Origin: Promethearchaeati archaeon SRVP18_Atabeyarchaeia-1
GTDB taxonomy: Archaea; Asgardarchaeota; Atabeyarchaeia; Atabeyarchaeales; Atabeyarchaeaceae
Direction: 5' to 3'
Length of the DNA stretch: 64,000 nt
Assembly: GCA_037308085.1 (NCBI GenBank)
Contig: CP147779.1
Location: 1,600,001-1,664,000, forward strand
The notes beneath the pieces were generated by a model that saw only the letters and a list, made by a program, of their open reading frames with translations, did no database searches and was not told where the DNA came from. Shown in pieces: positions 40,614 to 63,351 of this stretch (position 1 is the first letter of the stretch; each line of letters starts with the position of its first letter). The position numbers and the translations under genes were made by a program.

Positions 40614-40830
40614 GTGACGTAGCAGCTACTTTCCCACCTGCCTTGTCAGGTGCCGGCTTAACCCCATTGCCGGTAGCCCCCGGGTTTCCACCGGGCTCCC
40701 CGCCCTTTCGCACCCCTTCACTCATCCGAGGTGTGCCGTGGCAAGCGGGGTGACCTGTGAAGTCGGCTCGACCAGGCCCGCCCGGCTTCAACCTTCTACT
40801 GCCTTTCCTTCCAGGTGGCGCCCTGTAGGG
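40614..40830 (-). ncRNA. Putative TnpB omegaRNA scaffold
   Basis: GC-rich multi-hairpin tract overlapping the tnpB stop (CCCGGTGGAAACCCGGG, ACCTGACAAGGCAGGT, GCGAAAG), ending near TCAC; boundaries inferred. Confidence 0.55.
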
Positions 40831-42209
40831 GTCCCCCGGGCGAGCGCGGCCGTAGAGGATGCCCACACGTAACGCACGGGCACCCTGACCCTCGGCATCC
40901 TGCCTCTCCCTAGGGCAATGGATAATGGCTTCTCCAGCTTCTCACCGTACCCGTAGAACCTTCTCCCTATCACGTACGCGGCTGCCTCGTGGACCGATAG
41001 CCCAAGCCTCCACGAGTACTTCGCGGCGCCGAGCTTCGACGTGTACGCCGGGTTGACGGTAGAGACCGGGCACCCCTTCTTCCGGCACCTGCTCAGAAGG
41101 TTCTCCGTGAACTTCCTCCTCACAAAGGCGTACACGACCCTGTTCGCCCTCCTCCCGAAACTCTTGTGAGCTTTCAGGTCCAGGTCCTCTATCACGAATG
41201 AGTGGGTGTCCCACGCCTCGGCGAACTCCATGATCCTGCTCACGAGCGCCCCGACTAGCGAGTCTCTCTTCCCCTGGGAGGCGTATATCAGCCTGTCCTC
41301 CCTAAGGAACCTGTGGGCCACCAGGTTGCCATCCCTGGAGGTGATTGCGGTGGCGAATCCCCCGGGGTTCTGGTCCACTGAGCATACCCTCAGGATTGTT
41401 CCCTTTGGCTCCGGTGGCTGCTCAGCCTCGAAGCTCACATCTGCGAAACACCTTTCCCTACGCCTCGTGAAGCGAACCGGATATGCTCCGCCATCCTCGA
41501 GAGGCGCGAGGTACTCCATGAAGTTGCTGGGGACGCAGAGCTGGAACTCCTTGACGCTGTTCGCCACCCTGTACACTCTTCCGTCCTCGCCAGTCCTTGC
41601 CCTATCGATGCTCTCCGGGAAGCGCACCGCTACAGCTCTTCCCTCTTTCACGATTCTTATGTTGGCGTTGCCCTTCTGGTTCGCCTGGCCTATCGAGTAG
41701 ACCTGGTTGCTCCTCGCCTCCCTCCATTCACGGTTGCTTATCTTTTCCCTCACCAGTGCGGTGAAGTTACTTCTGCCGCCGAAGATCGCCTTCGGCACCG
41801 TTCCATCGTGGATATGTTTCTGGTAGAACTCTGCCCTCTTCTTGAGCTTCGCGAGAAGCTTGCCGAGCGCTGCCCTCCTGCCCGGCGACTTCGTCTTCTC
41901 TATTAGCTTCTCAACGCGCCATATTCTGTCCTGCACGCTGCCCAGATACAGTGGTAGCAGCTTCCTTTGGCTCTCGATGACTGCTTGGGCGTCTCTACCT
42001 GAGTGCTCGGCGTACCTCCAGTTCAAGCGGAGGGAGCTGTACTCGAGAAGCAGGTGCGTCACCTCGTTGACAGTGCGCCCCTCAAGTAGCCTGTTGTAGG
42101 CTATCCTCTTCGCGGAGCAGTACCTCGCCATGAGGTCGTCGAGCCCGCTTCTATCGGCGCTCGATAGCGCTGCGAGTTCAACTTCGAACGTGAACTGCAA
42201 CCTTCTCAT
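40788..42209 (-). CDS. tnpB: TnpB-family RNA-guided nuclease, zinc-finger-less variant, no adjacent tnpA
   Basis: RuvC-I SVDQNP, RuvC-II VIEDL, VNPAYTS, HEAAAYVIGRR in place of ZF-DxNAAxNI. Confidence 0.88.
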   Translation of the reverse strand: MRRLQFTFEVELAALSSADRSGLDDLMARYCSAKRIAYNRLLEGRTVNEVTHLLLEYSSLRLNWRYAEHSGRDAQAVIESQRKLLPLYLGSVQDRIWRVEKLIEKTKSPGRRAALGKLLAKLKKRAEFYQKHIHDGTVPKAIFGGRSNFTALVREKISNREWREARSNQVYSIGQANQKGNANIRIVKEGRAVAVRFPESIDRARTGEDGRVYRVANSVKEFQLCVPSNFMEYLAPLEDGGAYPVRFTRRRERCFADVSFEAEQPPEPKGTILRVCSVDQNPGGFATAITSRDGNLVAHRFLREDRLIYASQGKRDSLVGALVSRIMEFAEAWDTHSFVIEDLDLKAHKSFGRRANRVVYAFVRRKFTENLLSRCRKKGCPVSTVNPAYTSKLGAAKYSWRLGLSVHEAAAYVIGRRFYGYGEKLEKPLSIALGRGRMPRVRVPVRYVWASSTAALARGTPTGRHLEGKAVEG

Positions 42210-42309: not shown

Positions 42310-42483
42310 AAAGCCAATTGATGGGGTTGGCTATTCCTACTTGAAGTGCAGAGCATGCGGCTTCGAGGCGAACCGAGACTGCGTCGCAAGCCTCAACATT
42401 GCCTTCAGGGCGGCCCAAACGAAAGACACGCCAAGAGCCTGCAAGATGTGCCAGTTTCCCGAGGGGGAGCGTCTCCTTCAGGA
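42310..42483 (+). pseudogene. tnpB: tnpB C-terminal relic 1, truncated at an att-like site
   Basis: GYSYLKCRACGFEANRDCVASLNIAFRA...QFPEG; homologous to 44458-44640 and stops at the same nucleotide position. Confidence 0.85.
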
Positions 42484-42504
42484 TGTGCTAACAATTACTA
42501 AATT

Positions 42505-42649
42505 AGTAGACAAAGATTGATGAAGACAGAAGGGCATAATGGGAATCGAAGTTCTTCCGCCGGCTATTGATATGGATCGTTTGATCCGCCTATTGAAGAA
42601 GAAGAGTAAGACGAGATCATTGAAGGAAGCTCGAAAGATTGAGGCTTAA
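42505..42649 (+). pseudogene. DUF2283-like antitoxin fragment
   Basis: DED.../MGIEVL motif, frameshifted. Confidence 0.35.
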
Positions 42650-43885: not shown

Positions 43886-44277
43886 TGCCGTTCGTTGCCG
43901 ACACTCATGCACTAGTCTGGTACATGACGGACAACCCGTCCCTGTCCCTAACAGCTAAAAAGATCTTTCAGAGAGCTGACGGTGGAGAAGAGAAGATTCA
44001 CATTCCCTGCATAGTCTTTTTCGAACTGCTTTACCTTGTAGAGAAGGGAAAGGTTGGAATTGCTTTTGGTGACTTTGTCTCGATGTTTACTTTTTCGAGT
44101 AACTACGTAGTTGAGCCAGTATGGGTGCCAGTCATCAAGAAAAGTTCTGAAATCCCGGACGGAATAGTCCCTGATCCTTGGGATAGACTCATTGCTGCCA
44201 CATCGATGCATCTGAATCTCCCTTTGATAACGCGAGACAGGACTCTTCGGAGAATCGGATTAAGAACAATCTGGTAG
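43885..44277 (+). CDS. vapC: PIN domain toxin (VapC family)
   Basis: VADTHALVWY, FELLYL, DPWDRLIAAT, LITRD. Confidence 0.92.
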   Translation: MPFVADTHALVWYMTDNPSLSLTAKKIFQRADGGEEKIHIPCIVFFELLYLVEKGKVGIAFGDFVSMFTFSSNYVVEPVWVPVIKKSSEIPDGIVPDPWDRLIAATSMHLNLPLITRDRTLRRIGLRTIW

Positions 44278-44457
44278 ATCAACTATCAGTTTCCAAAACC
44301 ATATGGTTTTATAGAGAGTTACTCAGTTTTTTTGCTGAGACCGCTTGACATGGTTTTGTCCTCTCTTAGTAGATGTACTTGTTTGGCTTCTCTCCTTTCT
44401 TGACGCATTCTCGGCTTGATGTGTTCCACCCGATCTCGCCGCTCTGTAGCTTCTTGA

Positions 44458-44640
44458 ACCTGTCCACGGCGAAGGCGAACTGGGTCGGCTACTCCTACTT
44501 CAAGTTCCCTGCATGTGGCTTTGAGGCAAACCGTGACCGCGTGGCGAGCCTCAACATCGCCCTCAGGGCGGTCCAAGCACAAGACACACCAAGCGCCGAC
44601 AGGATGGGCCAGTTTCCTGGGGGGAGCGCCTCCGTCAGTA
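44458..44640 (+). pseudogene. tnpB: tnpB C-terminal relic 2 (5' half of the interrupted target)
   Basis: TCPR/AKANWVGYSYFKFPACGFEANRDRVASLNIALRA...GQFPGGSASVS. Confidence 0.88.
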
Positions 44641-44680
44641 AGGTAAACAATAAAGTTACTTCGCAAGTAGTCGCATTAGA

Positions 44681-44741
44681 GGTACACTCATCTAGCAGTT
44701 ATCAGTTATAGCGTGATAGCGAACTGCTAGACAAGTGTACC
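44681..44741 (-). repeat. 61-bp imperfect palindrome, copy A
   Basis: GGTACACT/AGTGTACC and TCTAGCAGTT/AACTGCTAGA stems. Confidence 0.9.
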
Positions 44742-44946
44742 CAATATGTCAATAAACCCGCCTTACCTTAAAAAACAATAAGGAATCGATCTCCTCACTT
44801 GCTCGATCTCTTGTGGGCTTTTATCTTCTGTCAATCTCTAAGACTAGCCGTCTCGACAAACCACGTAAGAGGTCTTGCTAGGACTCCTGACTTAAACGGG
44901 CGTGCGCGTCCGACCTCACACATTCTCCGCAGCGCATTAGGGAGCG

Positions 44947-46098
44947 CTATTTTTCAAATCTAGCGAGCAGTTCCTTTAATCCTACATTATAGCCTTGTCT
45001 GAAATCGGCGTACTCCTTGTCTGCAATGAGTGGGGGTATCTTGCATTTTTGAAGCAAAACAGGTAATACGACCACAGATTTCATCTGCAGTTCTTTCATC
45101 AATGCCGCATTAAGCTCTTTCCTAACCCAATTGGATCTGACGGATGCTTTTGAAAGAACAGTAATAAAGTAATCATTCTTTTCGATTCCTTCGTTTATCT
45201 TATCAAGTAGTGAGTCTCCTACTCTTATTTCCCATTTGTCAATCCAGATCTTTATGTTAGCGCGCTCTAAGTCTTCTACTAAACGATCAACGAATATTGA
45301 GTCCCGATGGGAATAGCATATGAACACGTGATCTGACCGCTTTAAATCATTCTTACTAGGCATACTCTTTGCCCCCAACAACCTGTCTGCTTCAGCGTTC
45401 CTCTCTCGCTCGGCACGCCGATCATCGAGAATGGCTTCTCTAAATCCTCTTGCTTTTTCTTCCAAGTCCTCTAGACCAACTACCCTAACTCTTTCATTTT
45501 TGCGAAAATAGGACATAAGGACGTCAAGGTATGGCTCTCCGTCGTCAAACACGATTTCGTCGGTCATTAGATGTGCTTTAACTTTGGACTCTCTCAATAG
45601 TATTTTCCAATGATTTCGCTTGAACATTCTAAATAGCTTCTCTACTTCATTTCTCCTATTTTGCTTTCTCTCCGACTCCTTTTTCATACGATAATTCCTG
45701 ACGTACGGTAAAATGAGATACACGAATATCGCTGGTAACACCCACCAAACTATCGCAATCGGTCCTAAGATGAAGAAAACAGAGATAGCTGACGATGATG
45801 GCAAAATGTAGCTAGGCAAGAAATATGGTAGATACAATATGAAAAGTGAGCCAACTGTTAAGACACCACCAACAATACCCCAATACAGCAGTAACTCATT
45901 ATCCCAGTCGTGGATGAGAGTAGGCACAAATAATATTGGCAAAAACACCCACCAAACTATTGTAATCGTTCCTAGAATGAAGAAAGCATCGATAGAGAAA
46001 AATGACGGTACAAACCATATGAAACATGAGACAAAAATCAAGCCAATGCCGATAGTAAGCCAATACTTGAGAAAATCACCCCAATCATACCAGCTCAA
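44947..46098 (-). CDS. Multi-TM protein with C-terminal TIR domain
   Basis: Duplicated TM unit (FFILG.I.IVWWV), VFICYSHRD, SNWVRKELNAA. Confidence 0.9.
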   Translation of the reverse strand: MSWYDWGDFLKYWLTIGIGLIFVSCFIWFVPSFFSIDAFFILGTITIVWWVFLPILFVPTLIHDWDNELLLYWGIVGGVLTVGSLFILYLPYFLPSYILPSSSAISVFFILGPIAIVWWVLPAIFVYLILPYVRNYRMKKESERKQNRRNEVEKLFRMFKRNHWKILLRESKVKAHLMTDEIVFDDGEPYLDVLMSYFRKNERVRVVGLEDLEEKARGFREAILDDRRAERERNAEADRLLGAKSMPSKNDLKRSDHVFICYSHRDSIFVDRLVEDLERANIKIWIDKWEIRVGDSLLDKINEGIEKNDYFITVLSKASVRSNWVRKELNAALMKELQMKSVVVLPVLLQKCKIPPLIADKEYADFRQGYNVGLKELLARFEK

Positions 46099-46323
46099 AC
46101 TATCAGCTCCTATTGCGTCTCAAAATGATCACGCAGCGCGCGCTAGTAGTGATCGTCCAGTGTGCTAAAATTGCTAAAGATCATGAATCAATCAAAGAAG
46201 TTAAAGAGTTAAAGCCAAACTTCTTTGACTATCTCTCATGAGTTCCCCCAAACTCTTCTTTGGCGAGCGCCCTTTATCTTTTCCGATGTCAGAACGAATC
46301 AGTGTCTCTTAGAGAAAGTACTA

Positions 46324-46917
46324 TCATCGTCTCCAGTAGATATCCCACTTTTTCCTCTGACTGGAATAATTATTTCGCATGCGCCCATTGTTGTGTCTCC
46401 TTACGTTAGCCCAAACGAAAGTAAGATAGTTTTTCATCCATTCTTCTCTTGCAACTCTTCTTTCGATGAAGTCTCCCGACAACTCATCGTCATACAATAC
46501 GAACATATATGCGTGGCGTAAATCTGTCTTGAGCGTTCTTAATTTCTCAAGGTCTTTATTGATGCTAGGAATTTGTAAGCCGTCTAATTGGCACTTCAAT
46601 TCGATGGCGTCTACAAGTTGTGTACCTTTATAAATCGTGATATCTGGCTTTACAAATGTATCTTCCTTGGTCGGTCCATGGCTCAATTCAATGAGCGGTT
46701 GTGACCTTAGAAACCATCGTTCGCTTCTTTCATTTTCGAAATACTTTCTTAGCCAATAATAAGCTGCAGCTTGCATATCAAACTCTGAATAAACGAAATT
46801 TGAATACCAATCCTCAACAAGCTTCTCAGGGAGATCATTCAATATCCATGAATCAGCCTTCGATTCTCCTGGTGATTCTCTTACCTTCCTCAACTCATTA
46901 GCACTCATTTCATTCAC
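46324..46917 (-). CDS. PD-(D/E)XK nuclease-like protein
   Basis: SEFDMQ, KPDITI, AIELK, DLEKL. Confidence 0.75.
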   Translation of the reverse strand: MNEMSANELRKVRESPGESKADSWILNDLPEKLVEDWYSNFVYSEFDMQAAAYYWLRKYFENERSERWFLRSQPLIELSHGPTKEDTFVKPDITIYKGTQLVDAIELKCQLDGLQIPSINKDLEKLRTLKTDLRHAYMFVLYDDELSGDFIERRVAREEWMKNYLTFVWANVRRHNNGRMRNNYSSQRKKWDIYWRR

Positions 46918-46961
46918 CTACTTCTCCTCACAGGCTTTCCGTGCCTCCCGCACCCAATACG

Positions 46962-47131
46962 ATAACCACGCTCTACCTTAAAAATAGTAAAGGAATTGAT
47001 CCCCTTACTTCCCGCTCGACCTCTATCAAGTGCTATGGCTTCTGATACCTATATCTGAAAAGGGGTGTCTCAACTTTGTGACCGAAATGTAGACGGCTCA
47101 TCTTTTCGATAGCATCCTTCATGTCTTCGTC
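46962..47131. repeat. 170-bp direct repeat, copy 1 (promoter-like spacer + 3' end of the 47033 gene)
   Basis: Near-identical to 50586-50755; diverged partial copy at ~44765-44810. Confidence 0.92.
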
Positions 47132-47884
47132 AATATCGGTGGAGAAGAATGCCTTATGATCGTAGCCCCAATGTGTTTTGGTTTCTGGTATGAGCACTTC
47201 TTGACTCCACAGATATTTTACGCTCGGATAATGAACCACGTTCAGCAGGAAAGCTCCTGCCAACGCATTGAGAGCATTGTCTACGTTTGCTTTCTCAATG
47301 GAAGAAGACCATTCGTGCTTTAGATCATTGTACGCCATCCACCAATCAGGAACAATATGCGCTCCGTACTTACTCCGATCGAACTTCTCGAATGGTCTGA
47401 GTGGTATCTCTCCATACCAACTTGACTTCGCCACCAACTCTGCTCCACTATTAGATGATAGTTCATAGATCGATTCAAAGGCATCTCTCGCAACGAAAAT
47501 ACTGTAATCCTTCTCTACCTTCTTACCGTTCTTGTCGGTCTCCCACCATGCCTTTTCAATGGCATCTCTGCTTTTGTCGAATTTCATGAAGTCAGGAAAG
47601 TCTCTCATCTGCTTAAAGACATCATCCATGTATCCGCATACCCTCAAAATCAAGTCGAGTAGCTTAGGTGAGAAACCACATCTGTTTCTATCTGCATAGG
47701 GGACATACTCAAAGAACCTGATCAGATCAGTCTCGTAGTATCCATATAATGTCCAACAGAGACCTTTCTCAAAGGCAGTTCCACTTTGGTTTCTCGGCAG
47801 GATCATTCCCCTCTCCGCTTGTCGATCACAACTATCATGACTCTGCCCATACGAAGAAGACGAGAGCGTACTTGAATCCATCAT
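47033..47884 (-). CDS. Hypothetical protein, possibly HEPN-like
   Basis: FSPKLLDLILRVC, WWMAYNDLKH, ANVDNALNAL. Confidence 0.7.
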   Translation of the reverse strand: MMDSSTLSSSSYGQSHDSCDRQAERGMILPRNQSGTAFEKGLCWTLYGYYETDLIRFFEYVPYADRNRCGFSPKLLDLILRVCGYMDDVFKQMRDFPDFMKFDKSRDAIEKAWWETDKNGKKVEKDYSIFVARDAFESIYELSSNSGAELVAKSSWYGEIPLRPFEKFDRSKYGAHIVPDWWMAYNDLKHEWSSSIEKANVDNALNALAGAFLLNVVHYPSVKYLWSQEVLIPETKTHWGYDHKAFFSTDIDEDMKDAIEKMSRLHFGHKVETPLFRYRYQKP

Positions 47885-48348
47885 TTCTTTTGGGTGTATA
47901 CTATCTTTTGTATTGTGTTACAACTCTCCTCAAGATTCTTCTCGTCATCGCGGATAATATCTTCATAAAACTGAATGTCTCTTCTTACTTTCTTAAGTGT
48001 ATTCTCGTCATTTTGTCTGTGTAAGCAATATTCCTTACCCCTGTTCTTACAGCCACCAGATGTATACGCGTACCGAGTACACTCCCCCTTTTTTGAGCAA
48101 TCAGCTAGCAACGATACGAAAAATCTCTCAGAATCCTTCCGCTCGTCCCTGAGAATCCTGTTCTTGATCAGCCTATCGTGTATGCCATTTATCCTTTCGA
48201 GCATGATATTCAAGTTCTTTCTGGTAGCTCTATCCTTAATCACAGTAAGAAGTGTATTCAAAAGCTTAACTGTATCACCCGCTATTTCAGACATTTCCCT
48301 CTGCCTCCCTCGCTCCCTATTCCTCAAGGAATCGGCACGTAATCCCAA
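47881..48348 (-). CDS. Hypothetical protein with Cys cluster and coiled coil
   Basis: CSKKGEC...GC...YC; overlaps both neighbours. Confidence 0.6.
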   Translation of the reverse strand: MGLRADSLRNRERGRQREMSEIAGDTVKLLNTLLTVIKDRATRKNLNIMLERINGIHDRLIKNRILRDERKDSERFFVSLLADCSKKGECTRYAYTSGGCKNRGKEYCLHRQNDENTLKKVRRDIQFYEDIIRDDEKNLEESCNTIQKIVYTQKK

Positions 48349-50462
48349 TAACCGATCTGATCCAGACGCTTAGATACCTCGTCTTTCATCCCTTTCCTAC
48401 ACTTTGCGGTATCTACCTTCGATTGTCTGATTAACTCAACGACTTCGCCTATAGTATGACCGTCATAGACAAGGCAGTCCTTACATAAATTGAACAGGTA
48501 CTCAACGCCCTTGGTGAGACTTTCGCCACCGAACCTGAAAACCTTGTTAGTGCCAAAGAAGCCGATCTTCTCCTTGGCGTAGTTGGCGAATAAGGCGTGG
48601 AGAGCCGAATAGGCTAAGATCTCCAGCGTTTCCCGTCTTGAAGTGTCTGGGAGATGAACATAGGCATTGTCGAAATAAATAGGGTGCAGTATATCAGTCA
48701 TAGATGTCCAAAACGCACGAGCGCCAACAGACACGCTCCAGAGCCCATAAAACAATTCATCTGGCACGTTTGGGATTCCCACTACCTTCTTTACATTTTC
48801 GGGTACGACTTCAGAGCCTCCTTTTGCTACATCCAAATGAAATACCTTCGGTGCTGGCGCGTTAAATGTGTCGCAATGCTGAACAGCAATCTCTCCTCTT
48901 ATCACTTCCCTGTTGTCGTATGCCCATCCGTCCTTCAATAGAGGCATCTTCTTGAAGACGGTTTTTTTCGTACCGCCACTCTTGTCTACGAATTCAAAAC
49001 TCAGATCAAGATGTTTGGAATTTGTGTTCGGCGCGTACTCCCAGATTGTAAAAGCAATAGGTTTGATCTTGCTAATGTCGTGGAAGTAGTTGCCCGCAAA
49101 AATGTAACCCTTTAGGAACCTGAAGTCCTTCAGCAACGCGGTCAAGAGTTTCATATAGCGTTCTCTGCCACAGAACAAACCGAATGGTGAGAAGAAAGCC
49201 AAACAACAGGTCTCATGAGCCTTGGCGATCTCGATGAGCCTTCCGACGATGGGCAAGAACAGGTCGCCTTTCCCGTACTTCTCCAATACGCGAGGATACT
49301 CCTGCCCAACCACTGTCGATGACTGCTTTCTTGATAACTTCCCGTTCATTTCCCCCTTCTTTGACACCAACACGTTAGTTGACGTTGTCCCAAATGGTGG
49401 ATTTGTGTAGAGCAGTAACTTCTTGTCAGCAGGTACATCCCAAGCCTTAATCAGAACATCGGTTAAAGTATTGACCACATCAAGTGTGGTGAACTTCCAC
49501 TCATACCCGCTAAATATCTTCTTGCAGTTTTCTATGTGGCTACTGCTAATATCATTCATGGCTCCCTTGATTTGTGGAACGATGTTCTTTATCAATGATC
49601 CTCCGCCAACACATGGTTCAACAACATAATCTGGTTTAGTCAATCCCAGTATTTCATCAGCTACCTTGTCGCCGATCTCCTCCTCAGTCCAGAAAACCCC
49701 ATATTCACGCCTCTTCTTTCGAGATAGAAGACGATCCAACTCGTGGAGAATTTCTGCAAGGTCTTCGTGCTTAACACGCAGAGACTCAAACCAAGAAGCG
49801 TCAATCGGCTTTATCGCTAGGTGCTTGGGTTTGTGAGTCCCTCCGTACTCTGTCGGTAGTTCGCTTAGCTTTCTCTCGTCACTGCGTTCGTTAGTGAATC
49901 TCTCTGGCTTGTCCATGTTCACAAGCCAACCGTCTTTGTTAACTTTGATAATGTCATCCTCGCCTACTCCGTCAAGCCAGTTGACCAAATGATCAAGTTC
50001 TATTCTATACTTGTCAGTCATCAACTTGATTGAGTTTATGTTGTCCTTATTTATGAAGAGAAATTTTGATGTCGGCAATTCCAGTTCTATGATCTTGTCA
50101 GGCTCGCCTAAGATCTTCTCGGCTTGCTCGTTTAGTCCTGGTTTGTCCGCTTCGTTTGATTCGAATGCCAGCCTTGGATCAAAACTCATGACAAAAGTCG
50201 ATATTCTCTCAAAAGAAGGTCGTGAATACAACTTGACAACTCTATTATCTGCGACGCCAAGATATTTCGCGTCCTTGATTCCTTCCTTCGCTATTGCGTG
50301 AAGTAACTGGGCGGGCGCAAAATGGTCAGGCTTGACCTCTATATAGACTCTGTTCTTCTCATCTGCGATATCGCAAAAGCTGTCTATGAACTTGAACTTG
50401 AAGCCGAGTGTAGTTTTGTTCAAGTAGTCTTTTATCTTCAAGGACAACGCTTTTTCACTCAT
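48324..50462 (-). CDS. Fused endonuclease/N6-adenine methyltransferase (type IIG-like)
   Basis: N-terminal CDIAD..VYIEVK; VVEPCVGGG (motif I), YTNPPF (motif IV). Confidence 0.8.
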   Translation of the reverse strand: MSEKALSLKIKDYLNKTTLGFKFKFIDSFCDIADEKNRVYIEVKPDHFAPAQLLHAIAKEGIKDAKYLGVADNRVVKLYSRPSFERISTFVMSFDPRLAFESNEADKPGLNEQAEKILGEPDKIIELELPTSKFLFINKDNINSIKLMTDKYRIELDHLVNWLDGVGEDDIIKVNKDGWLVNMDKPERFTNERSDERKLSELPTEYGGTHKPKHLAIKPIDASWFESLRVKHEDLAEILHELDRLLSRKKRREYGVFWTEEEIGDKVADEILGLTKPDYVVEPCVGGGSLIKNIVPQIKGAMNDISSSHIENCKKIFSGYEWKFTTLDVVNTLTDVLIKAWDVPADKKLLLYTNPPFGTTSTNVLVSKKGEMNGKLSRKQSSTVVGQEYPRVLEKYGKGDLFLPIVGRLIEIAKAHETCCLAFFSPFGLFCGRERYMKLLTALLKDFRFLKGYIFAGNYFHDISKIKPIAFTIWEYAPNTNSKHLDLSFEFVDKSGGTKKTVFKKMPLLKDGWAYDNREVIRGEIAVQHCDTFNAPAPKVFHLDVAKGGSEVVPENVKKVVGIPNVPDELFYGLWSVSVGARAFWTSMTDILHPIYFDNAYVHLPDTSRRETLEILAYSALHALFANYAKEKIGFFGTNKVFRFGGESLTKGVEYLFNLCKDCLVYDGHTIGEVVELIRQSKVDTAKCRKGMKDEVSKRLDQIGYWDYVPIP

Positions 50463-50515
50463 AGTCTTCTCCCCTCCCCACAACCTTGAAGGAATTTACA
50501 GGCACACACAACAAA

Positions 50516-50576
50516 GGTACACCCATCTAGCAGGTATCAGTTAAAGCGTGATAGCGACCTACTAGACAATTATACC
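50516..50576 (-). repeat. 61-bp imperfect palindrome, copy B
   Basis: Collinear with 44681-44741, with a compensatory stem change. Confidence 0.9.
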
Positions 50577-50585
50577 CATATGACC

Positions 50586-50755
50586 ATAACCACACTCTAC
50601 CTTAAAAATAGTAAAGGAATTGATCCCCTTACTTCCCGCTCGACCTCTATCAAGTGCTATGGCTTCTGATACCTATATCTGAAAAGGGGTGTCTCAACTT
50701 TGTGACGGAAACGTAGACGACTCATCTATTCGACGGCATCCTTCATGTCTTCATC
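50586..50755. repeat. 170-bp direct repeat, copy 2 (contains orphan 3' tail of the 47033 gene, 50657-50755)
   Basis: Near-identical to 46962-47131. Confidence 0.92.
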
Positions 50756-51059
50756 TTCCATATGTCGCTATCACGCTCCTGCTAGAAAAACCGTCTTTCC
50801 CTGAGAAAAAGGAGACCGCTGAAGGTTCCAAGGCTTCAAGATACTTCCTGCAATGTACTCAGGTTTGCTGAATGCAACTTATCTGTGCTGGGAGTGGTAA
50901 TTTTTGCTGTTGCTTGTTTTATTGCTTCGACTGCCAGCGGAGGCAAATATGAACGCGTTGGTGAACGAAGGGCCAGACGTTGGATGAAAGAGTGTTCTTG
51001 AATTTCAACGTTAAAGGCACATTTCTAGGTTCTTGAGGGTGATCGGTGATGCCTCTTTT

Positions 51060-52154
51060 TCAAAGAGAGGATCTGAGCAACTTTGAGATCTTTTCGATCT
51101 TGTCTTGTGTGCCGGTCGATGGAATCTTCTCCCATCCGCCTTTTGTTTCGAAGGTGCTTTCGCCGGGCTTCTTCCTCCACACTTCGAGAAGATCTTTTAT
51201 GCTGTCGGGATTATAGTTCCCGTATCTCTTGGATAGTTCAGGTATGACTTTTGGCAAGACTCTCAAGAAGGATCGAAGCGCGATCGCGGTCTTGATGCTG
51301 TAGTCATGATTGTTCCACGCGTGTGGAAAAACCTCTTCGGCTATGACTTTGAAGTACTGAACCAGAAAATTGCCCAAGTATGGCTTTATCGAAGACCAGC
51401 TGCTTGGAGCCTTAGCCATTTCAGCAACAAGCTGTTTGAACTCTGCACCTAGGGCCGATAGGCTTACCCATCCCTTTTCTTCACCGGTTATCTTGACTTT
51501 CTGATATAATGGCGAGTTCGACTCGAGTGCAAGAGGCTTCAGGTAATCATGTGCTGGTATGATCCACTTTAGTTCTTGCACCAAGTTCTCATAGTCTTTC
51601 ATTCTGGGTGCCAATTCGAAATATAGCGAGGTTGGTATCCTAGTTTGCTTCGAATTTATCATCACAAATAGTGCGGCCATATCTTCGTCTCTCAGGCTAT
51701 CCATAATGATTGTGGGAACAGTTATGTCAAATCTCGACTTATTCTTTTTCAGAAGGTTTTGTAGTGCAACGAATCTGTGCTGGCCGTCAAGGACCTCGAA
51801 CAGGTATTTCTTATTCGGCAGCGTTAATTCATTCTTGTCGAACTCTAGCTCTTGATGAGTGACCAATATCAGCGTGCCCGGAAAAGCGGGGATAGGTGCG
51901 CCCTTCGAACATTCCTGGAAGTATCTCATCAGTTCTTTTATTTTCTTTGCCTTTATGGGTCTCTGAAATGCTTTTGAACTTTTCATTATACGCGACCAGT
52001 CTATTACGCCCTCTTTTCTCTTCTTGACTTCGAATCCCAAAGATTCGTAGGAGATCATCTGTAATTTCACTAGGTTGTCCAACCGGGATGCTTTAATCGG
52101 CGAGAAGTAAAGGTATTTCCCAAATTGTTCTATTTTAAAAGCTGGTTCTTTCAT
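51060..52154 (-). CDS. DGQHR domain protein (DndB/ParB-like superfamily)
   Basis: FQR, VLDGQHR, LFVMINSKQ. Confidence 0.9.
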   Translation of the reverse strand: MKEPAFKIEQFGKYLYFSPIKASRLDNLVKLQMISYESLGFEVKKRKEGVIDWSRIMKSSKAFQRPIKAKKIKELMRYFQECSKGAPIPAFPGTLILVTHQELEFDKNELTLPNKKYLFEVLDGQHRFVALQNLLKKNKSRFDITVPTIIMDSLRDEDMAALFVMINSKQTRIPTSLYFELAPRMKDYENLVQELKWIIPAHDYLKPLALESNSPLYQKVKITGEEKGWVSLSALGAEFKQLVAEMAKAPSSWSSIKPYLGNFLVQYFKVIAEEVFPHAWNNHDYSIKTAIALRSFLRVLPKVIPELSKRYGNYNPDSIKDLLEVWRKKPGESTFETKGGWEKIPSTGTQDKIEKISKLLRSSL

Positions 52155-52695
52155 CTATTCTTATCACCCAGCCCGGGGGAATCTGAATGGTACCGCCAAT
52201 AAGATCATTACAGGTTTTACACGCGGTGGCAAGATTCTGCGGATCAGACTTGCCGTGAAGTGCTCGTGGAACTATGTGGTGGATTTGTAGATCATTCTCA
52301 CTTCCACAGTATCTGCATCTATGGTTGTCTCTCTGAAGAATTGAATTCTTTGTGATGATGTCAAAGTCCTCAGAGCCGGCAAAAATTATCTTCCAGATTA
52401 GATGCAGAATCTCGATTTCGTAGTCATCTAATATGAGGTAGTCGATGCCAGTTCTACGCTTCAATTCCTCTCGAAAACTCTTCAGGCTTTCGTCTTTCGG
52501 TCCCAGTCTTGTCAAGAACAGCAACCTTTGTTTCTCTTTCTCACCTCTTAGCCAAAGTCTGATGCTTCTTACTTTCTGAAGCCTGATATATCTCAGCACT
52601 TCAAGAAGTTCTGGTATACTGTCCTCAGGGTTACCCCATCTCTTGAGCAGGTCTGCGATCTCCTCCTCTTTCGAGGTGCTTCCCTCCATGTCCAT
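52135..52695 (-). CDS. HNH endonuclease
   Basis: RDNHRCRYCG..LQIHHIVP..G....NLATACKTCN. Confidence 0.9.
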   Translation of the reverse strand: MDMEGSTSKEEEIADLLKRWGNPEDSIPELLEVLRYIRLQKVRSIRLWLRGEKEKQRLLFLTRLGPKDESLKSFREELKRRTGIDYLILDDYEIEILHLIWKIIFAGSEDFDIITKNSILQRDNHRCRYCGSENDLQIHHIVPRALHGKSDPQNLATACKTCNDLIGGTIQIPPGWVIRIDERTSF

Positions 52696-53112
52696 CGCGC
52701 TTGACTCAATAAGTCGTGTTAGGCAAAGAAGGTATAAAAGTGTTAAGATGTCGAGGTGTCAACTGGAGATGTGGAGGTGAAAGACAGCATTGATGCGATT
52801 CGCAACCTAGATTCGAGGATGGCAAACTTCCAAATCAAGTATAAGCCATTATCATTCACAGAAGGGCAAGAACTAGTTTCAAAAGCCTTGAACGTTTTGT
52901 CGTCGAATAAGGAACCTGATAACAGCTAGAATACATCAAACCTATTGGCGCTTTGGCTAATAGTTTAGTCGCATTCCTAACAGTCGTCACACTTGCCAGG
53001 TTCATGCTTGAGACGCTTAACCTCGCTTCTCTCATTATCACCAAGTATGCATGCCCACACAGAAGTGTTCTCCCCCCCAGAAACACCGATTGAACTTGAA
53101 TCCGGCGCTGTT

Positions 53113-54303
53113 TTAGGTTGTGATCTTGCCTCTCGTCCCAAGTATAAGCTTAGTGATTTCCGCGGTATCGATTCCTCTATTAAGGAATTTTCCTAGCAAG
53201 TCAAATAGGTCAATCGTTGTCATCAGGCAGAAGTTGTTCCCATCCGCTATCCGAATGGCGTCTTTCGTGAAAGGATCTCCACGCTTCTCTGGTTCCACCT
53301 CACGAAAGTGGTTAAGCACAAATACGCCTTTAGCTTCCTTGCCGCTCTTTATTCCCTTCATGTAGTGATCAAGCAGCTGCCTCAAGTCATCATTATTGGC
53401 GGTTCCCTTTAACCCCTTGACTTCGACTATCCCGAGCGTCCCATCGAGATCCAGCTCGATGTCATGCTGCCCTTCCCGCTCCTTCCACTTCCCTTTGATA
53501 CCTGTTTTCCTAAGAAGAAGATACACGGAATATGAGAGCTGGTCTCCATAGGAGTAAACCACTTGTCTCAGTGATTTAAATTCACCTAACTGCTTCTCCA
53601 TTTCAGTGACTTTTTTGCGAAGATCTTTTTCGCCTGGAAGCAAGTATTGACCGACCCATTTAGGCTCCTCAACCAGATCTCTCTGAGGCATGTAATTTGA
53701 CTTGATCATATTCAATACCACGCGCAGAAACTTCGGCAGATCCGCTTTCGAGTTTTCCAGATTGGGCAAGAAGAAAACCCTAGCGCCAGAGTTAAGCTTT
53801 ATCTCATAGGATACGGCGAGTCCGGGATTGTTCTTGGCTATGACAAGGCGCTCAGGATAATTATTCTTTAGGTGCCATAACCAGTTGAACTTGAAGTTTC
53901 TGAGGGCAGCTGAGAGCGGATGTTTGCGATTAAGTTTGATCACTTCGCCTTCCTTTTCCTCGACTTCTGGCAAGCGAGCAGGAAAAACGTCTTCAGGAAT
54001 AGTTCCGATTGGGAACACAACCAAAGCCCCAGGCATCGAGAGAAATCTTTGAAACTCACTCTTGGTCTTTTCCAACGCAGATTTGATCTTATACTCTGAA
54101 TATTTATTAATGTCCTTGTGAAGTAATTCGAACGTGCGACTGAGGCCTTTCTCGCAAAGGAAGATTATGTCATAATCGTACAGCGTTGGTGCGTCAAGAA
54201 GATCAGGATTGTAATATAACTCTTCGTCCTTGGCTAGCTTCAGCTCTCCGATGCTGAATTCCTCAATGCGAGGTACTCCAATGAAAAGGATTCTGTAGTT
54301 CAC
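53113..54303 (-). CDS. Protein with C-terminal restriction-endonuclease-like PD-(D/E)XK domain
   Basis: HDIEL..IVEVKG..DLRQL, KGVFVLNHFR. Confidence 0.78.
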   Translation of the reverse strand: MNYRILFIGVPRIEEFSIGELKLAKDEELYYNPDLLDAPTLYDYDIIFLCEKGLSRTFELLHKDINKYSEYKIKSALEKTKSEFQRFLSMPGALVVFPIGTIPEDVFPARLPEVEEKEGEVIKLNRKHPLSAALRNFKFNWLWHLKNNYPERLVIAKNNPGLAVSYEIKLNSGARVFFLPNLENSKADLPKFLRVVLNMIKSNYMPQRDLVEEPKWVGQYLLPGEKDLRKKVTEMEKQLGEFKSLRQVVYSYGDQLSYSVYLLLRKTGIKGKWKEREGQHDIELDLDGTLGIVEVKGLKGTANNDDLRQLLDHYMKGIKSGKEAKGVFVLNHFREVEPEKRGDPFTKDAIRIADGNNFCLMTTIDLFDLLGKFLNRGIDTAEITKLILGTRGKITT

Positions 54304-55501
54304 CTGCCAGCCTCCAAATCTCTGTTAGGGTAACTATGAGACTAGTTACCGCACCTTGCCAATCGAGTTTCGAACACGCATATGATCCTCTAGACCAGTA
54401 CCGTCCCGCCCCACAAGAGATTCCTCTCACTCAGCAATATACGAGTCCAATATATATAGTTGGGTAGAGCGCCAAGAAAACTGAAGACACGTCAGAACAA
54501 CGAGTAAGACTTACCTCCTCCATCAACCTTCTTGATTTCGCGTCTGAGTCGCTTTACCTATTTTGAGGGTCTTATCAGCTTAGATGCCTTTGGCGGTTAT
54601 CTCTGAAAGGTTGAAAGGTTTGATCATCCATATTCGATCCTGCCTATCTGCTCACATGCGTCTCCATCTCAGCATCCATCTAATTTCTATTTGAATTCAA
54701 CAATCCAGTCTACCCGTTTCCGACCAGAGAACCAAATTCACTTATAAAAGCGCTAATATAAGCTACATAGCTATAGGCATCCGTTTAGGTAGGCATTTCT
54801 GACCCCAACAGCCTACCCTTCTCACGTCAAAAACCCTTCCTAATTAGCCAAAACAATTCAAATCAATTCGACTATTATTCCTCACTCTGACCCGAATAAT
54901 CCTGATTTATCTTCATTCGATGCAGGATAATAACCTAATTCATGTTCTTCTCTTGATTTCAAGACAATATCCTCTGCCTCTGGTCTCTCCAAATTCAATT
55001 TGCCACGGGCAAATGGACAGCTTCATCTGTGGATAGACTCTCCCCTTCATGCTTCGCTCTCCACTTCGAGACCAGACATCTTGATGCCCAACAATATTCA
55101 CTCATGTGAATTCGCCTAGAATGATCGCGTTGCTGCAGTGGCACAGAAAGCGCTGGATAGAATCGCTTAAAGAAGCTGGGAATCGAGGAACTCCGCTGAA
55201 GTTTAAGATCTCCTGAAACAGAATGAGAGGGGCTGTAGCTAAGCCTTCGACCATCTTCCTCTTCTTTCGTTTCTGTTCAGCTCAACTGCCTTTCTCAAGT
55301 CCTCCACGAAGTCGCTCCACTCAAATCCCATGCAGGTCCCTGTTTCTCTGGTGCGCTCCCTATACAATGTTATAATTGGTGATGATGCATAATTGGGGAG
55401 ATTTATGGATGTCGCAATGCCTCCACAAGGGATATATCACACGCCCGACGACTAGAGAAGCGAATATTCCAGCTGAGAAATGAGGGGGAACGGCCGACAG
55501 C

Positions 55502-55597
55502 ATGAGTGCAGGAAATGATGATTTCGAGAAGGGCCGATGCTGGGCACAATACACATTCATGGAAGACGAGCTGCTCGACTTCATGTGTGAACCATAG
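55502..55597 (+). pseudogene. 5' fragment homologous to the 47033-47884 gene
   Basis: FEKGRCWAQYTFMEDELLDFM versus FEKGLCWTLYGYYETDLIRFF. Confidence 0.6.
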
Positions 55598-55617
55598 CTC
55601 GTGGAGGGGTTCCATAA

Positions 55618-56871
55618 TTGCCGAGTACTGAGACAGGTGTGCACGAGGCCGCGAATAGGAGCAAAATAACCAGAATCAAGACAGAAGATGAAGAGAAGGA
55701 GGGGAACGCACTCGAACACGCCCCGAAGGGTCGTCGGGCTCGGCGAGAAAAGAAGCCAAGCGAAGACGAAAACAGAGAGGCATTAAGAAGGCAGACCACT
55801 CAACTGGGCGAAACTGATTCAGATGCAAGACTAGATGAGTTTCTGCTGAAGAATAAGGAAAAGGCCGATTTGACGTTTGCACCCTATGCGATCGGTCTTC
55901 TGATACTCGCACTACTGGTAGCTGATTTGCCTTTTCCACTACCGTACTTGGCTGTTATCGGATACGTTCCGATATTCTATGTGTTGAGGAGAATTGTTCT
56001 ATCGCAGATCGTTAAGACGAGATTGGAGAAGTATTATAATCTAGTAGCTGATGTTTTGTATACGCAATCCGGCGGAAAGCAGATCTTCTGGACCCAGGTA
56101 GTTCTCAAGCTATCAACTCCCGAAGAGATTCTGCCAGATAGCAAACTGTTAGAACTTCTGAAGTCGTCTAGCACACGTGCCTCAAGATCTGAAGCAGGAC
56201 AATTCGCAGAGATTTACGAACGAATTAGAGATGGTAGAGTGCGATCTCTCTTTGCGGAGACGCCTGACCACAAATATCACGTGCTTTTCGTCGAGTACGC
56301 TAATGGCAATGACCATCCCTCTCCGATCAGTGCCAAGACAAGATTTGGAAGGACTTCTGTCAACGCTTTTCGCAAGAACTTGTGGTATGTAGGGAACTAT
56401 CGTCTTTATGATATCCCTGAGTCGAATAGCATCGGAGACCAAGTGCTCGTTTTCTCGGGTCGGAAAGATGCTTCTCCCTTAAGACTAGTGATGCCAAACC
56501 TAGTTGAGACTTTGTTCATGATCGCTAATCTCAACCGGATTAGGCAGGAGAAAAGTCTCGCGCTCTTGAAAGCCAAGAACGAGTCGCTTCGCGCCGCGGT
56601 TGAGGCGCTGGAAGAGCATCAGAAGGCGATAGATGCTATATTGAGTAGTTCGAGAAAGGTTTCACGAGTACTGGACGAGAGGCTCCTCACGAAGATAGAC
56701 ACTTCACCGACACGAGCAGAACTTGAAGTTAAGCCAGTTGGTAGATTCGATATGCTTGTGAGCCTAGTCAAACGTTCATCTAAGTGGTTCTTTCTCACTA
56801 TTGCGGGATTGATCATCGTAATAGTATTCGGACCATATTTGTCTTCGCTTATTTCTCATTGGTTAACATGA
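55618..56871 (+). CDS. Hypothetical membrane protein with coiled coil
   Basis: Two N-proximal TM, coiled coil, C-terminal TM. Confidence 0.7.
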   Translation: MPSTETGVHEAANRSKITRIKTEDEEKEGNALEHAPKGRRARREKKPSEDENREALRRQTTQLGETDSDARLDEFLLKNKEKADLTFAPYAIGLLILALLVADLPFPLPYLAVIGYVPIFYVLRRIVLSQIVKTRLEKYYNLVADVLYTQSGGKQIFWTQVVLKLSTPEEILPDSKLLELLKSSSTRASRSEAGQFAEIYERIRDGRVRSLFAETPDHKYHVLFVEYANGNDHPSPISAKTRFGRTSVNAFRKNLWYVGNYRLYDIPESNSIGDQVLVFSGRKDASPLRLVMPNLVETLFMIANLNRIRQEKSLALLKAKNESLRAAVEALEEHQKAIDAILSSSRKVSRVLDERLLTKIDTSPTRAELEVKPVGRFDMLVSLVKRSSKWFFLTIAGLIIVIVFGPYLSSLISHWLT

Positions 56872-57045
56872 CTCACACACAAGTTTCCCCATCTTTGGAT
56901 TCTCCTCGACGGTCTCGAAAGGTTTCCCGGATATCCTAGCGCCGTACCGTGCTGTGGCGAAGTCCTAGGTTTGAAAATAGACGAGAATACCTAGGAAAGG
57001 AGGAGGCTTCAAATAGCCAGAGTCCTGAGGAGCGAGAAAGTATGC

Positions 57046-57408
57046 ATGGAGGGATATCAGATGTCTATCTTTGAGGATATGACTAACGCTGAAAGGGAAG
57101 TTGCAGGGTTCCTCTCAGATCTTCGCATCTGGTGGACGTTCCAACAACCAGTCTGCGTGGAAGACGAGAAAAGCAGGCCAAGGATTTGGAGCCCAGACTT
57201 CTACCTATCTGAGCTCGGGCTGTACATTGAAGTTTGCGGTTCTGAGCGCTTTGACTACTCCTACCGCGAGAAAATCTATAAGGCAAACAGGATACCTGTG
57301 ATCTTTGTACACCTTTACAAGGAAGGGGCAAAGTGGTCCTACTTTCTGATCCAGCGGATCAAGGAAATCCATGCCATGCGGTCAGGGATCATCGATAAAT
57401 TGGTCTGA
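57046..57408 (+). CDS. Small PD-(D/E)XK nuclease-like protein
   Basis: AEREVA, SPDFYL..LGLYIEVCG. Confidence 0.75.
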   Translation: MEGYQMSIFEDMTNAEREVAGFLSDLRIWWTFQQPVCVEDEKSRPRIWSPDFYLSELGLYIEVCGSERFDYSYREKIYKANRIPVIFVHLYKEGAKWSYFLIQRIKEIHAMRSGIIDKLV

Positions 57409-57561
57409 GCGTGCGCTGAGAAAGAGGGTGGTTGGTTCTTTTGCTGTTGACATTTTCGCGCAGCTAAATAACGTTTACTTCATGTCCTCGCGAACAGTTA
57501 GAAGCCTCTAGCGATTCAGCTCCGTCACCATTTCCCCTCTGGAAAATAGTGACACTGTGCA

Positions 57562-58086
57562 CTAGCGCGCGTGCCAGTTGGTCAACTCTCTCAACTTCCG
57601 TCGATAAGTCTTCTGGTGACCATGAGATGGGAATGGCAGAGCTTCCTCGTTTCGAATCCTTTTGTCGAGACCGGCTTCTTCAATTGCGTCTCTCACAGGG
57701 GCAAATATGTTAGATTTCACGATAAGAATACTTTCAGGATCTAGCTCCCGTGTGTCAGCGACAAGTCTAGGTATTCCCTCGATGATAGCGCGTCTTCTCT
57801 CCATCGGCTTAAGCTTGTTGACGGGCTTATAGCTTACATCGACGACGAAAAAACCTCGCGACTGAAACTCTTTCAGGCAAGGCCTCTTGTCGAGACCCGT
57901 TGGCATTTTCTTATTTTCGGGGAAAATTCCAAGGGCTTTCATAGTCTCTCTGAAAAGGCTGTCCGCTCCTGCTGTCTGATCGGAATAGAAATATCCTCCA
58001 CAGTAGGGAGGAGACTCGGCGATGAGTAGAATCTTCACCCGTCCGTGCGGCTTATACTTGTCCCTTGCGAGAATGTACTCACGCAT
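57562..58086 (-). CDS. Uracil-DNA-glycosylase-like superfamily protein
   Basis: YKP..VKILLIAESPP, LPFPSHGHQ; likely start at ATG 58086. Confidence 0.75.
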   Translation of the reverse strand: MREYILARDKYKPHGRVKILLIAESPPYCGGYFYSDQTAGADSLFRETMKALGIFPENKKMPTGLDKRPCLKEFQSRGFFVVDVSYKPVNKLKPMERRRAIIEGIPRLVADTRELDPESILIVKSNIFAPVRDAIEEAGLDKRIRNEEALPFPSHGHQKTYRRKLRELTNWHAR

Positions 58087-58187
58087 AACGTTTATGGTAT
58101 TCGTTCTAACTGAAATAATTGACGCTCTATGCTTTGGTTCTGCAGAAATCGGGTGCGCGCGAACCGGTTGGAAGGGAAGAACTCGAG

Positions 58188-59114: not shown

Positions 59115-59261
59115 GGTCGTATCAGTCCTGCTTCTGCCGATTCACATAAAGTGGGATAGCCGAAAGCCCAGCTCTTGCAGGGGCATGAGCAACTTCTCTT
59201 GCTCCAGCTTTCGGTCTCTTGGTAGAGAAGCACGAATCCTTCCTGGTTCTCCTGAGCTCAG

Positions 59262-60128: not shown

Positions 60129-60149
60129 TGAGACGAGTCCCCCTCAATA

Positions 60150-63321: not shown

Positions 63322-63351
63322 CTACTTGATATAAGTATTTCTCTGTATATA

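Follow-up and report, generated by a model that had tools for sequence, protein, structure and literature searches.

The window analysed here is a stretch of 64,000 nt from Promethearchaeati archaeon SRVP18_Atabeyarchaeia-1 (assembly GCA_037308085.1, contig CP147779.1, positions 1,600,001–1,664,000 of the forward strand). At about 44641–63351 it holds an integrase-carrying defence island of this Asgard archaeon, with about 19 kb of cargo. The island is inserted in the 3′ omegaRNA-coding hairpin of a tnpB relic, whose remaining tail resumes at 63352 (Table 1). Translation of the relic (...CGFEANRDRVASLNIALRA..GQFPGGSASVS) matches tnpB copies of about 400 aa elsewhere in the genome, and the unoccupied copies carry the intact site GCGCCT-CCGTCAGT-AGGCGC. 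The real attachment site of the integrase is this double-stranded 6-8-6 inverted repeat in the tnpB tail. An exact 11-mer search for att direct repeats found nothing because the core is only 8 nt long. The motif ...ACAAT..N..AGTAG in the left arm of the island is common to the left ends of other elements at the same insertion site. Comparison of contigs with the island gave as its only joints two paralogous copies of the repeat described below (L002 and L004) and no excision or circle-junction contig, a result uninformative on whether excision occurs. In the empty-site comparison with relatives, the flanking DNA was only about 80% identical and synteny was lost; the few tnpB sites of two relatives are unoccupied. 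A landing pad inside the tnpB omegaRNA hairpin, used by many elements, is the more striking biology around this repeat. Integrated elements of Atabeyarchaeia have been described in a paper whose main text makes no mention of TnpB, hairpins or promoters (PMC11529989).

The cassette and its copies

The repeat is an intergenic unit of about 160 bases, here called the cassette, that comprises a small stem-loop (SL2), a T-run/TATA-like box and a 61-base hairpin. Read on the minus strand, it extends from about the stop codon of an upstream ORF through an SL2 of 7–10 bp, a T5–6 run overlapping a TTAA-type TATA-like box and a spacer of about 25 nt to the 61-nt hairpin. One cassette sits at the left tip of the island and two further copies lie inside it. 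The original prediction had described two hairpins, three boxes and an inverted partial hairpin copy, and all are present at those positions. The arms of hairpin A are 20 nt each, 90% complementary and 21 nt apart; hairpin B is 89% identical to hairpin A over 64 nt. On the plus strand the box reads CCTTAAAAA(A) at 44766–44775, 46976–46984 and 50600–50608. On the minus strand TTTTTAAGG ends 24–25 nt before the hairpin start, in agreement with the predicted spacing of about 25 nt. The third box copy was said to diverge where a hairpin would begin; indeed, similarity in copy C is lost 4 nt into the hairpin position. Copies B and C share a direct repeat of 173 nt (95% identical), and the inverted partial copy lies at the duplication breakpoint as proposed, with 50761–50777 matching 50545–50561 (17 nt, 94%) 5 nt past the direct repeat.

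Table 1. Features of the island and its cassettes in the window.
Feature	Position	Strand	Remarks
tnpB (IS200/IS605 OrfB-type) 3′ relic	44458–44640	+	end is the left half of the attachment site, GCGCCT-CCGTCAGT...
attL core CGTCAGTA	44633–44640		repeated at attR, 63352–63359
Island left arm with small palindrome TTACTTCGCAAGTAG	44641–44680		between attL core and hairpin A
Hairpin A	44681–44741	−	20-bp stem with tandem G-U on the minus strand, inner 4-bp stem, invariant loop segment CGCTATCACGCT
T-run/TATA-like box A	44766–44775	−	minus strand TTTTTTAAGG
SL2 small stem-loop, copy A	44777–44800	−	directly upstream of T-run; stronger in B and C
Direct repeat copy 1 (cassette copy C, without hairpin)	46959–47131	−	last 99 nt of 283-aa ORF, stop 47033–47035
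Parts of copy C	SL2 47009–46986; T-run/TATA-like box 46985–46976	−	followed by 197-aa ORF, ATG at about 46908
Hairpin B	50516–50576	−	54 nt upstream of ATG (50462) of 719-aa methyltransferase-like ORF
Direct repeat copy 2 (cassette copy B)	50583–50755	−	32-codon remnant of 283-aa ORF 3′ end
Parts of copy B	SL2 50633–50610; T-run/TATA-like box 50609–50600	−	within direct repeat copy 2
Inverted, doubly deleted partial copy	50761–50786	+	pre-hairpin stretch, hairpin loop and one arm; at direct-repeat end
Tyrosine integrase (XerA-like)	61978–63321	−	start 30–50 nt from attR core
attR core and rest of tnpB 3′ tail	63352–63447	+	96–98% identical to tails of intact copies

Two more full cassettes, L002 and L004, lie elsewhere in the genome at the same kind of left junction; the original prediction had not mentioned them, which left a gap in that first reading. 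The genome thus holds four hairpin copies and one hairpin-less copy, all in a single orientation, with matches among them at E = 1e-26 to 1e-30. A, L002 and L004 each lie on the inner side of an attL-type junction within a tnpB tail, 40 nt away from it (for A this junction is the left end of the island). Three independent junctions place the original site of the cassette at the element's left tip, immediately within attL. As all copies are paralogues in one genome, their conserved spacing is inherited and is not independent evidence. Every hairpin copy ends in GGTACAC...GTGTACC, and the 12-nt loop segment CGCTATCACGCT is invariant even in decayed and partial copies. The copies are mosaic: the hairpin of B is nearest that of A (54/61) and the remainder of its cassette is nearest L002 (54/58), which indicates recombination between cassettes. 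The copies inside the island arose by homologous recombination.

Of these internal copies, B stands at the head of a methyltransferase-like module of three genes and the hairpin-less C at the head of the 197-aa gene. The ORFs behind both have purine-rich, RBS-like sequences, and the intergenic gaps measure about 580 nt and about 115 nt; no gene follows the hairpin of A, L002 or L004 in the integrated state. The cassette had been thought to punctuate the cargo. It does head these two genes in the island, but what it accompanies is the 3′ flank of a single ORF, not each cargo gene.

Fold, strand and distribution

As minus-strand RNA, hairpin A folds with z = −7.4 and none of 200 shuffles folded as well, so the fold is not due to chance. 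Folding energies of the minus versus the plus strand in the four copies were −33.9/−29.8, −25.0/−14.4, −19.8/−16.8 and −18.4/−14.9 kcal/mol, better on the minus strand in every case; the L004 hairpin is decayed (z = −1.1). Across the four copies 87.5% of cells are paired on the minus strand versus 78.1% on the plus strand, and G-U cells number 11 versus 2, an asymmetry that amounts to about six independent columns versus two and on its own is not significant. The earlier statement that wobbles form on the minus strand only therefore holds for A versus B but not for the whole set. The compensatory change noted between A and B is real, with U-A in A and G-C in B, L002 and L004. Compensatory pairs among these four paralogues of one genome number only two, and the observed values were reached by 26 of 500 shuffles. 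B and L002 fold weakly with DNA parameters (−5.9 to −8.4 kcal/mol, z −1.1 to −2.6), and the better strand differs between copies. The modelled folds support a structure that, if selected at all, is selected on the minus strand and as RNA. The minus-strand part of the original prediction would thus stand on this condition, while its single-stranded DNA gives way to RNA, the DNA folds being weak.

These folds bear on the suggestion that the hairpin is an attC-like folded single-stranded DNA site through which the integrase captures cargo modules. Its length of 61 nt and imperfect palindrome do resemble attC, and the three-gene module is bracketed by copies B and C, yet we regard such a role as extremely improbable. 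The integrase is XerA-like and not IntI: it scores 16.3 bits with the integron integrase profile TIGR02249 (cut-off 265), and its best profile match is archaeal XerA at 92.8 bits, itself below the cut-off of 220. Its attachment site in the tnpB tail is unrelated to the hairpin. R′/R″ boxes and the GTTRRRY / RYYYAAC motif are absent from the cassette, and the single-stranded DNA folds of the diverged copies are weak and inconsistent in strand. Direct repeats, such as those bracketing the module, are what homologous recombination leaves behind, and the hairpin is wholly absent from copy C. The proposed attC-like capture of cargo is not borne out.

A covariance-model search for homologues had been proposed. 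BLAST and the covariance model (R1) found no cassette in the two relatives or in 150 other sampled Asgard genomes, and an exact-pattern scan for the hairpin core had 0 matches in a genome-contig collection and 0 in a metagenome-contig collection. Rfam 15 gave no match in the window at gathering score; at relaxed thresholds the only match with E < 5 was a human lncRNA model, which is spurious. As it stands, the cassette is a species-restricted repeat, and the structural evidence is suggestive but thin.

Confinement to one genome would suit a functionless relic, that is, what was once the left end of a single ancestral element, spread by integration and by recombination, its palindrome kept symmetrical by intrastrand template switching between the arms at the DNA level and not by selection on RNA. 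So would the paucity of compensatory events, the visible decay of L004, the state of L002 and L004 as dead remnants, and the inverted partial copy at the breakpoint, which shows the hairpin to be prone to rearrangement. We nonetheless consider both the relic and its template-switching component unlikely: the same strand is favoured as RNA in four of four copies, the loop segment has stayed invariant through decay and deletion, and two intact genes lie directly behind copies B and C.

Promoter-like and terminator-like features of the box

Archaeal BRE/TATA promoters have an A/T-rich TATA box about 24–27 nt upstream of the start site and, directly upstream of it, a purine-rich BRE that sets the direction. 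Regions upstream of tRNA genes, which contain TTAA-core boxes (e.g. AAAAAC-TTAAGA) in this genome, served as the TATA reference; a genome-wide search anchored on start codons was uninformative. The cassette box is preceded by CTTTACTAT on the minus strand and by GCTCTACC on the plus strand, neither of which resembles the AAAAAC that precedes tRNA genes; the TTAA core of the box fits the plus strand just as well. An oligo-T tract of T5–T6 is present in four of the five copies. In copy C the T-run lies 48–52 nt after the stop codon of the 283-aa ORF and is preceded by a 10-bp stem (SL2); T5 tracts are enriched 3–4-fold across the genome at 20–50 nt after stop codons, and the tract of copy C falls within this peak. 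Judged by its sequence, the 'promoter' box may equally be a terminator-like stem plus T-run. Such a terminator makes it more likely that an RNA containing the hairpin starts after the T-run than that it reads through.

The same features could make the cassette a terminal insulator, in which SL2, the T-run and the large hairpin form the 3′ end of the last minus-strand gene and block transcription leaving the island or crossing attP. The hairpin would then lie within a 3′ UTR and, like REP elements, guard against 3′ exonucleases. The constant partner of the cassette is the stop-codon region of the upstream ORF, while its downstream partners vary (the 719-aa gene, the 197-aa gene, an att arm); the stem and T-run were flagged as terminator-like in a scan, the T5 tracts peak after stop codons, and a minus-strand RNA structure suits a 3′ UTR as well as a leader. 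We judge this proposal unlikely. A T-run that terminates would leave the hairpin, 25 nt further on, untranscribed, and the hairpin is missing after the sole intact upstream gene, that of 283 aa at copy C. Downstream of hairpin A there is no T-run, and downstream of hairpin B there is just a weak U-rich stretch; nor is archaeal termination known to require hairpins.

The box might instead drive a small RNA gene with a transcript of about 70–110 nt, the hairpin and a short tail, acting in trans or as an antisense RNA. The hairpin begins at the expected start-site distance from the box, its loop sequence is invariant, and T-rich stretches lie downstream of it, UUUGUUGUGUGUG at B and, 30 nt beyond hairpin A, UUUAUUGUUU. 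However, no copy has a T5 tract after the hairpin, a search for complementary targets gave only the inverted scar at 50761–50786, Rfam has no match, and copy B leads straight into an ORF. A small RNA is accordingly a reading we hold to be improbable.

The integrase gene and the excised circle

Copy A adjoins attL and points out of the island, as originally described. In an excised circle it would, by geometry, face the integrase start 78 nt beyond the hairpin, and no T5 tract lies between the two in this arrangement. From this layout one can picture an excision-coupled switch in which the outward transcript is wasted while the island is integrated and the promoter and leader, reading across attP, raise integrase expression only in the circle, with the cassette also serving as a patch of homology for exchange of defence modules; we give this combination little credence. 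A circle-specific integrase switch is weakened by two observations. The integrase has its own TATA-like box at 63346–63351 in the right arm, with another at about 63330–63337, and the cassette is missing from a second, sister island, whose integrase is 91% identical and whose left end differs beyond about 30 nt. The integrase thus does not need the cassette.

The sister island speaks equally against the palindrome being an accessory part of attP, a double-stranded left-arm site bound by the integrase or by a directionality factor. The exact 40-nt distance of three copies from an att core would suit such a site, but copy B is distant from every att site, and the stems vary with compensation where a protein-binding site would be expected to keep its sequence. 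We find this role very improbable.

A candidate transcription boundary

An ordinary transcription boundary equipped with a leader hairpin is the most likely identity of the cassette, rather than an integron-like recombination site. More specifically, we tentatively favour, at somewhat below even probability, a terminator/promoter boundary with a 5′ leader hairpin that is shuffled between elements by homologous recombination, and with it the view that a small family of integrase-mobilised islands carries this unit between genes as a transcription-boundary cassette. In this scheme, the T-run would terminate transcripts of the upstream gene, and the same A/T box would initiate a new transcript 1–5 nt before the hairpin. 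The downstream RNA would then have the hairpin at its very 5′ terminus, and a stem in that place would presumably stabilise the RNA or regulate it. Promoter activity, the transcription start site and any effect of the cassette on the integrase in an excised circle are things we infer only. Should the cassette indeed work as a terminator/promoter with a leader hairpin, it would be among the first regulatory elements defined for an Asgard mobile element and would offer a handle on how Asgard defence islands express and exchange cargo.

Comparison with known systems

The presence of a tnpB 3′ end directly before the cassette in three loci, two of them with an IS left end, had pointed to a decayed tnpB element or MITE, of which the cassette would be the right end or omegaRNA. 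Intact IS200/IS605 copies, however, continue with AGGCGCGTTTGG...GGGTAACTGAC, a different 85-nt tail, and this true IS tail was found at 63352–63447, after the island. The cassette therefore belongs to the inserted element and not to the IS, and this candidate was rejected.

Like integron attC sites, the cassette hairpin is an imperfect palindrome of similar length between cargo genes of a tyrosine-recombinase mobile element, with one strand favoured. It differs in having no IntI-type integrase, no R″/L″–L′/R′ boxes and no extrahelical-base pattern, and its favoured fold is RNA, not single-stranded DNA. Moreover, one attC site stands at the 3′ end of every cassette of an integron array, whereas the 19 kb of cargo here hold two internal copies, one of them hairpin-less, and these two are the ends of a 173-bp direct repeat.

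Read-through or junction promoters active in the circular intermediate alone include Porf7 of Tn916, which reads across the joint, and Pjunc of IS911, IS30 and IS2. Similarly, the outward TATA-like box of copy A would face the recombinase gene after circularisation with no T5 tract between them. Pjunc is split across the junction, unlike the cassette box; here the integrase has a TATA-like box of its own, and the sister island lacks the cassette.

5′-terminal stem-loops that stabilise mRNA include the E. coli ompA leader and the B. subtilis aprE and ermC leaders; to our knowledge none has been characterised in Asgard archaea. The cassette shares with these a strong stem within a few nucleotides of the 5′ end, in its case a predicted one, and reuse before unrelated genes. 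REP/BIME intergenic palindromes and the conserved boundary ('linker') sequences of mosaic phages are further known types of repeat. The cassette differs from them in having only five copies, in one element family and one genome; like them, it is a repeated intergenic palindrome in the transcribed orientation and a substrate for homologous module exchange, and its copies are mosaic.

Cassette copies within the island cargo

The original prediction described two hairpins, A and B, accompanied by promoter-like boxes, and these elements lie where it had placed them (Table). All three boxes were located at the same spacing; on the minus strand each stops about 24-25 nt ahead of the hairpin position. 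The third box copy, in cassette copy C, had been said to diverge where its hairpin would begin, and similarity is indeed lost 4 nt into the expected start. The inverted, deleted hairpin copy was likewise recovered at the duplication breakpoint.

Table. Hairpins, boxes and repeats of the window, and full cassette copies elsewhere in the genome
Feature	Position	Strand	Description
Hairpin A	44681-44741	minus	20-nt arms, 90% complementarity, 21 nt between arms
Hairpin B	50516-50576	minus	89% identity to hairpin A
T-run/TATA-like boxes (3)	44766-44775, 46976-46984, 50600-50608		plus-strand sequence CCTTAAAAA(A)
Direct repeat	46959-47131 and 50583-50755		173 nt, 95% identical
Inverted partial hairpin copy	50761-50786		starts 5 nt past the end of the 173-nt direct repeat
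L002, full cassette	~1,709,130 of genome		same tnpB 3' piece and IS left end ahead of it
L004, full cassette	~832,007 of genome		same tnpB 3' piece and IS left end ahead of it

Copies B and C form the ends of the 173-bp direct repeat flanking a module of 719-, 155- and 283-aa ORFs, a signature of homologous recombination; at the repeat boundary, a rearrangement left its scar in the form of the inverted, doubly deleted copy. The cassettes are mosaic: hairpin B is nearest A (54/61), while the remainder of the B cassette is nearest L002 (54/58). Copy B stands upstream of the 719-aa methyltransferase-like ORF, with 54 nt from hairpin end to ATG, an RBS-like run (GGGGAGGGGAG) and the upstream gene ~580 nt away; copy C stands upstream of a 197-aa ORF. 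Elsewhere in the island, metagenome contig depth across 54624-55287 reaches 2-3 times the level of adjacent sequence, and three runs show many variant positions there, which suggests a multi-copy or strain-variable segment; no long ORF was found there.

The island interrupts a tnpB tail

Hairpin A lies 40 nt downstream of a plus-strand C-terminal relic of tnpB (IS200/IS605 OrfB-type), and the 2.81-Mb single-contig genome holds two additional full cassettes. In intact tnpB copies, ...GCGCCTCCGTCAGT is followed by AGGCGCGTTTGG...GGGTAACTGAC, a tail found again at 63352-63447 (96-98% identical), right behind the integrase gene. The island therefore spans ~44641-63351. We rejected a reading in which the cassette would be the right end of the IS, since the true tail of intact copies differs from it and resumes at that distal position. 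The insertion site is a 6-8-6 inverted repeat, GCGCCT-CCGTCAGT-AGGCGC, in the omegaRNA-coding tnpB tail, and CGTCAGTA occurs at the left and right island junctions. Inserts of about 0.6 kb to 26 kb occupy or break this stem-loop (44623-44645 and 63352-63447) at the identical position in eight or more other genomic locations; among them is a 26-kb sister island encoding a 91% identical integrase. At their left ends the inserts have only ~30 nt in common, an ...ACAAT...AGTAG palindrome motif, and the hairpin cassette follows this left arm in A, L002 and L004 only.

Several further observations concern this site. Metagenome contigs carry yet other inserts there (loose ends at 44640 and 63352). 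The L002 locus (L043, genome 1708900-1711700) is a miniature element in which, at about 153-210 of L043, ~44 nt of IS left end are joined straight to the final 12 nt preceding the att core, at a GGGG microhomology; a second attL-like junction (1710321) and an attR-like junction (1711383) suggest nested or tandem insertions. A 473-aa minus-strand ORF at 40788-42209 has a TnpB-like RuvC motif (VNPAYTSK) but lacks zinc-finger cysteines and any match in Pfam; beside it lies a second tnpB 3' relic (42341-42520), likewise broken at the att position. The island also occurs, essentially identical in sequence (44000-63900 compared), in wetland metagenomes from another study (runs X2 and X4), and therefore did not arise through misassembly of the source sample.

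The search of related genomes proposed in the original prediction came back empty: covariance model R1 matched only the known copies in this genome, none in two relatives and none in 150 genomes sampled from the phylum. Exact-pattern scans of genome and metagenome collections and Rfam gave no match. The relatives' tnpB sites are few and all unoccupied. The main text of a paper on wetland Atabeyarchaeia (PMC11529989) makes no mention of TnpB, hairpins or promoters.

The hairpin folds best as minus-strand RNA

Hairpin A folds with a z-score of -7.4, equalled by 0 of 200 shuffles; minus-strand scores for B, L002 and L004 are -4.2, -3.7 and -1.1. As RNA, each of the four copies folds better on the minus than on the plus strand (kcal/mol, minus vs plus: A, -33.9 vs -29.8; B, -25.0 vs -14.4; L002, -19.8 vs -16.8; L004, -18.4 vs -14.9). 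With the structure fixed, the minus strand has 87.5% paired cells and 11 G-U cells, the plus strand 78.1% and 2. Covariation is real but thin, comprising double, compensatory changes at two hairpin pairs, a level attained by 26 of 500 shuffles. Folded with parameters for DNA, the diverged copies give weak structures and the preferred strand varies from copy to copy, so the modelled folds favour RNA over ssDNA. The single-stranded minus-strand structure suggested in the original prediction, if under selection, would be RNA and not ssDNA. An attC-like recombination site, the role suggested for ssDNA, is highly improbable, as every defining feature that could be tested fails. We consider a small RNA gene improbable. 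All four copies and the partial inverted one carry the loop segment CGCTATCACGCT unchanged. The L004 hairpin is decayed, and L002 and L004 are dead remnants without an integrase. That the cassette is a functionless relic is unlikely.

The cassette and the integrase in a hypothetical excised circle

In an excised circle the minus strand would read box (44775-44766), hairpin (44741-44681), 40-nt arm, 8-nt core, 30 nt of right arm and integrase, for which GTG at 63321 and ATG at 63300 are candidate starts. No T5 tract occurs on this path across the joined ends, and the geometry is right for reading across attP into the integrase. Against the circle-specific integrase switch once proposed count the TATA-like boxes of the island's own right arm and the sister island, which has no cassette. 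An accessory site of attP, compatible with a place 40 nt from the core, is quite improbable beside that cassette-free sister. No circle junction was obtained among metagenome contigs matching 44000-63900, a result silent on whether excision happens. The sister-island integrase (L046 759-2140; genome about 1554258-1555640) is interrupted by an in-frame stop following the ATG apparently used by the window island and would need a TTG start 18 codons further in; the islands retain conserved right-arm DNA as far as that TTG.

A proposed terminator-like boundary ahead of the hairpin

Our preferred, still tentative, reading is a terminator/promoter boundary cassette: the T-run/TATA-like box would form the boundary and the hairpin the 5' leader of the RNA downstream, with the cassette ancestral to the left tip of the element family and spread within the island by recombination. 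On the minus strand, family-wide cassette similarity starts at approximately the 283-aa ORF's stop codon (copy C). Next comes a stem-loop, SL2, of 10 bp (B and C) or 7-9 bp (remaining copies), then a T5-T6 run passing into AAGG, a ~25-nt spacer and the 61-nt hairpin. A terminal insulator or 3'-UTR hairpin would fit this start at a stop codon; we regard it as rather unlikely.

A consensus scan flagged SL2 plus T-run as terminator-like. Genome-wide, T5 tracts are 3-4-fold over background at 20-50 nt downstream of stop codons, a peak that can be used as a signature of terminators in this Asgard genome; the T-run tract of copy C lies 48-52 nt past its stop codon. Regions upstream of tRNA genes, many of which ARAGORN missed or miscalled, probably because of introns, carry an A-rich BRE and a TATA box with a TTAA core, as in AAAAAC-TTAAGA or AAAAAC-TTAAAAGA, 30-55 nt ahead of the mature 5' end. 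Compared with these, the cassette box has the TTAA core and a BRE on neither strand. Together with SL2, the T-run and the T5 enrichment, this makes the box credible as a terminator and possible as a promoter.
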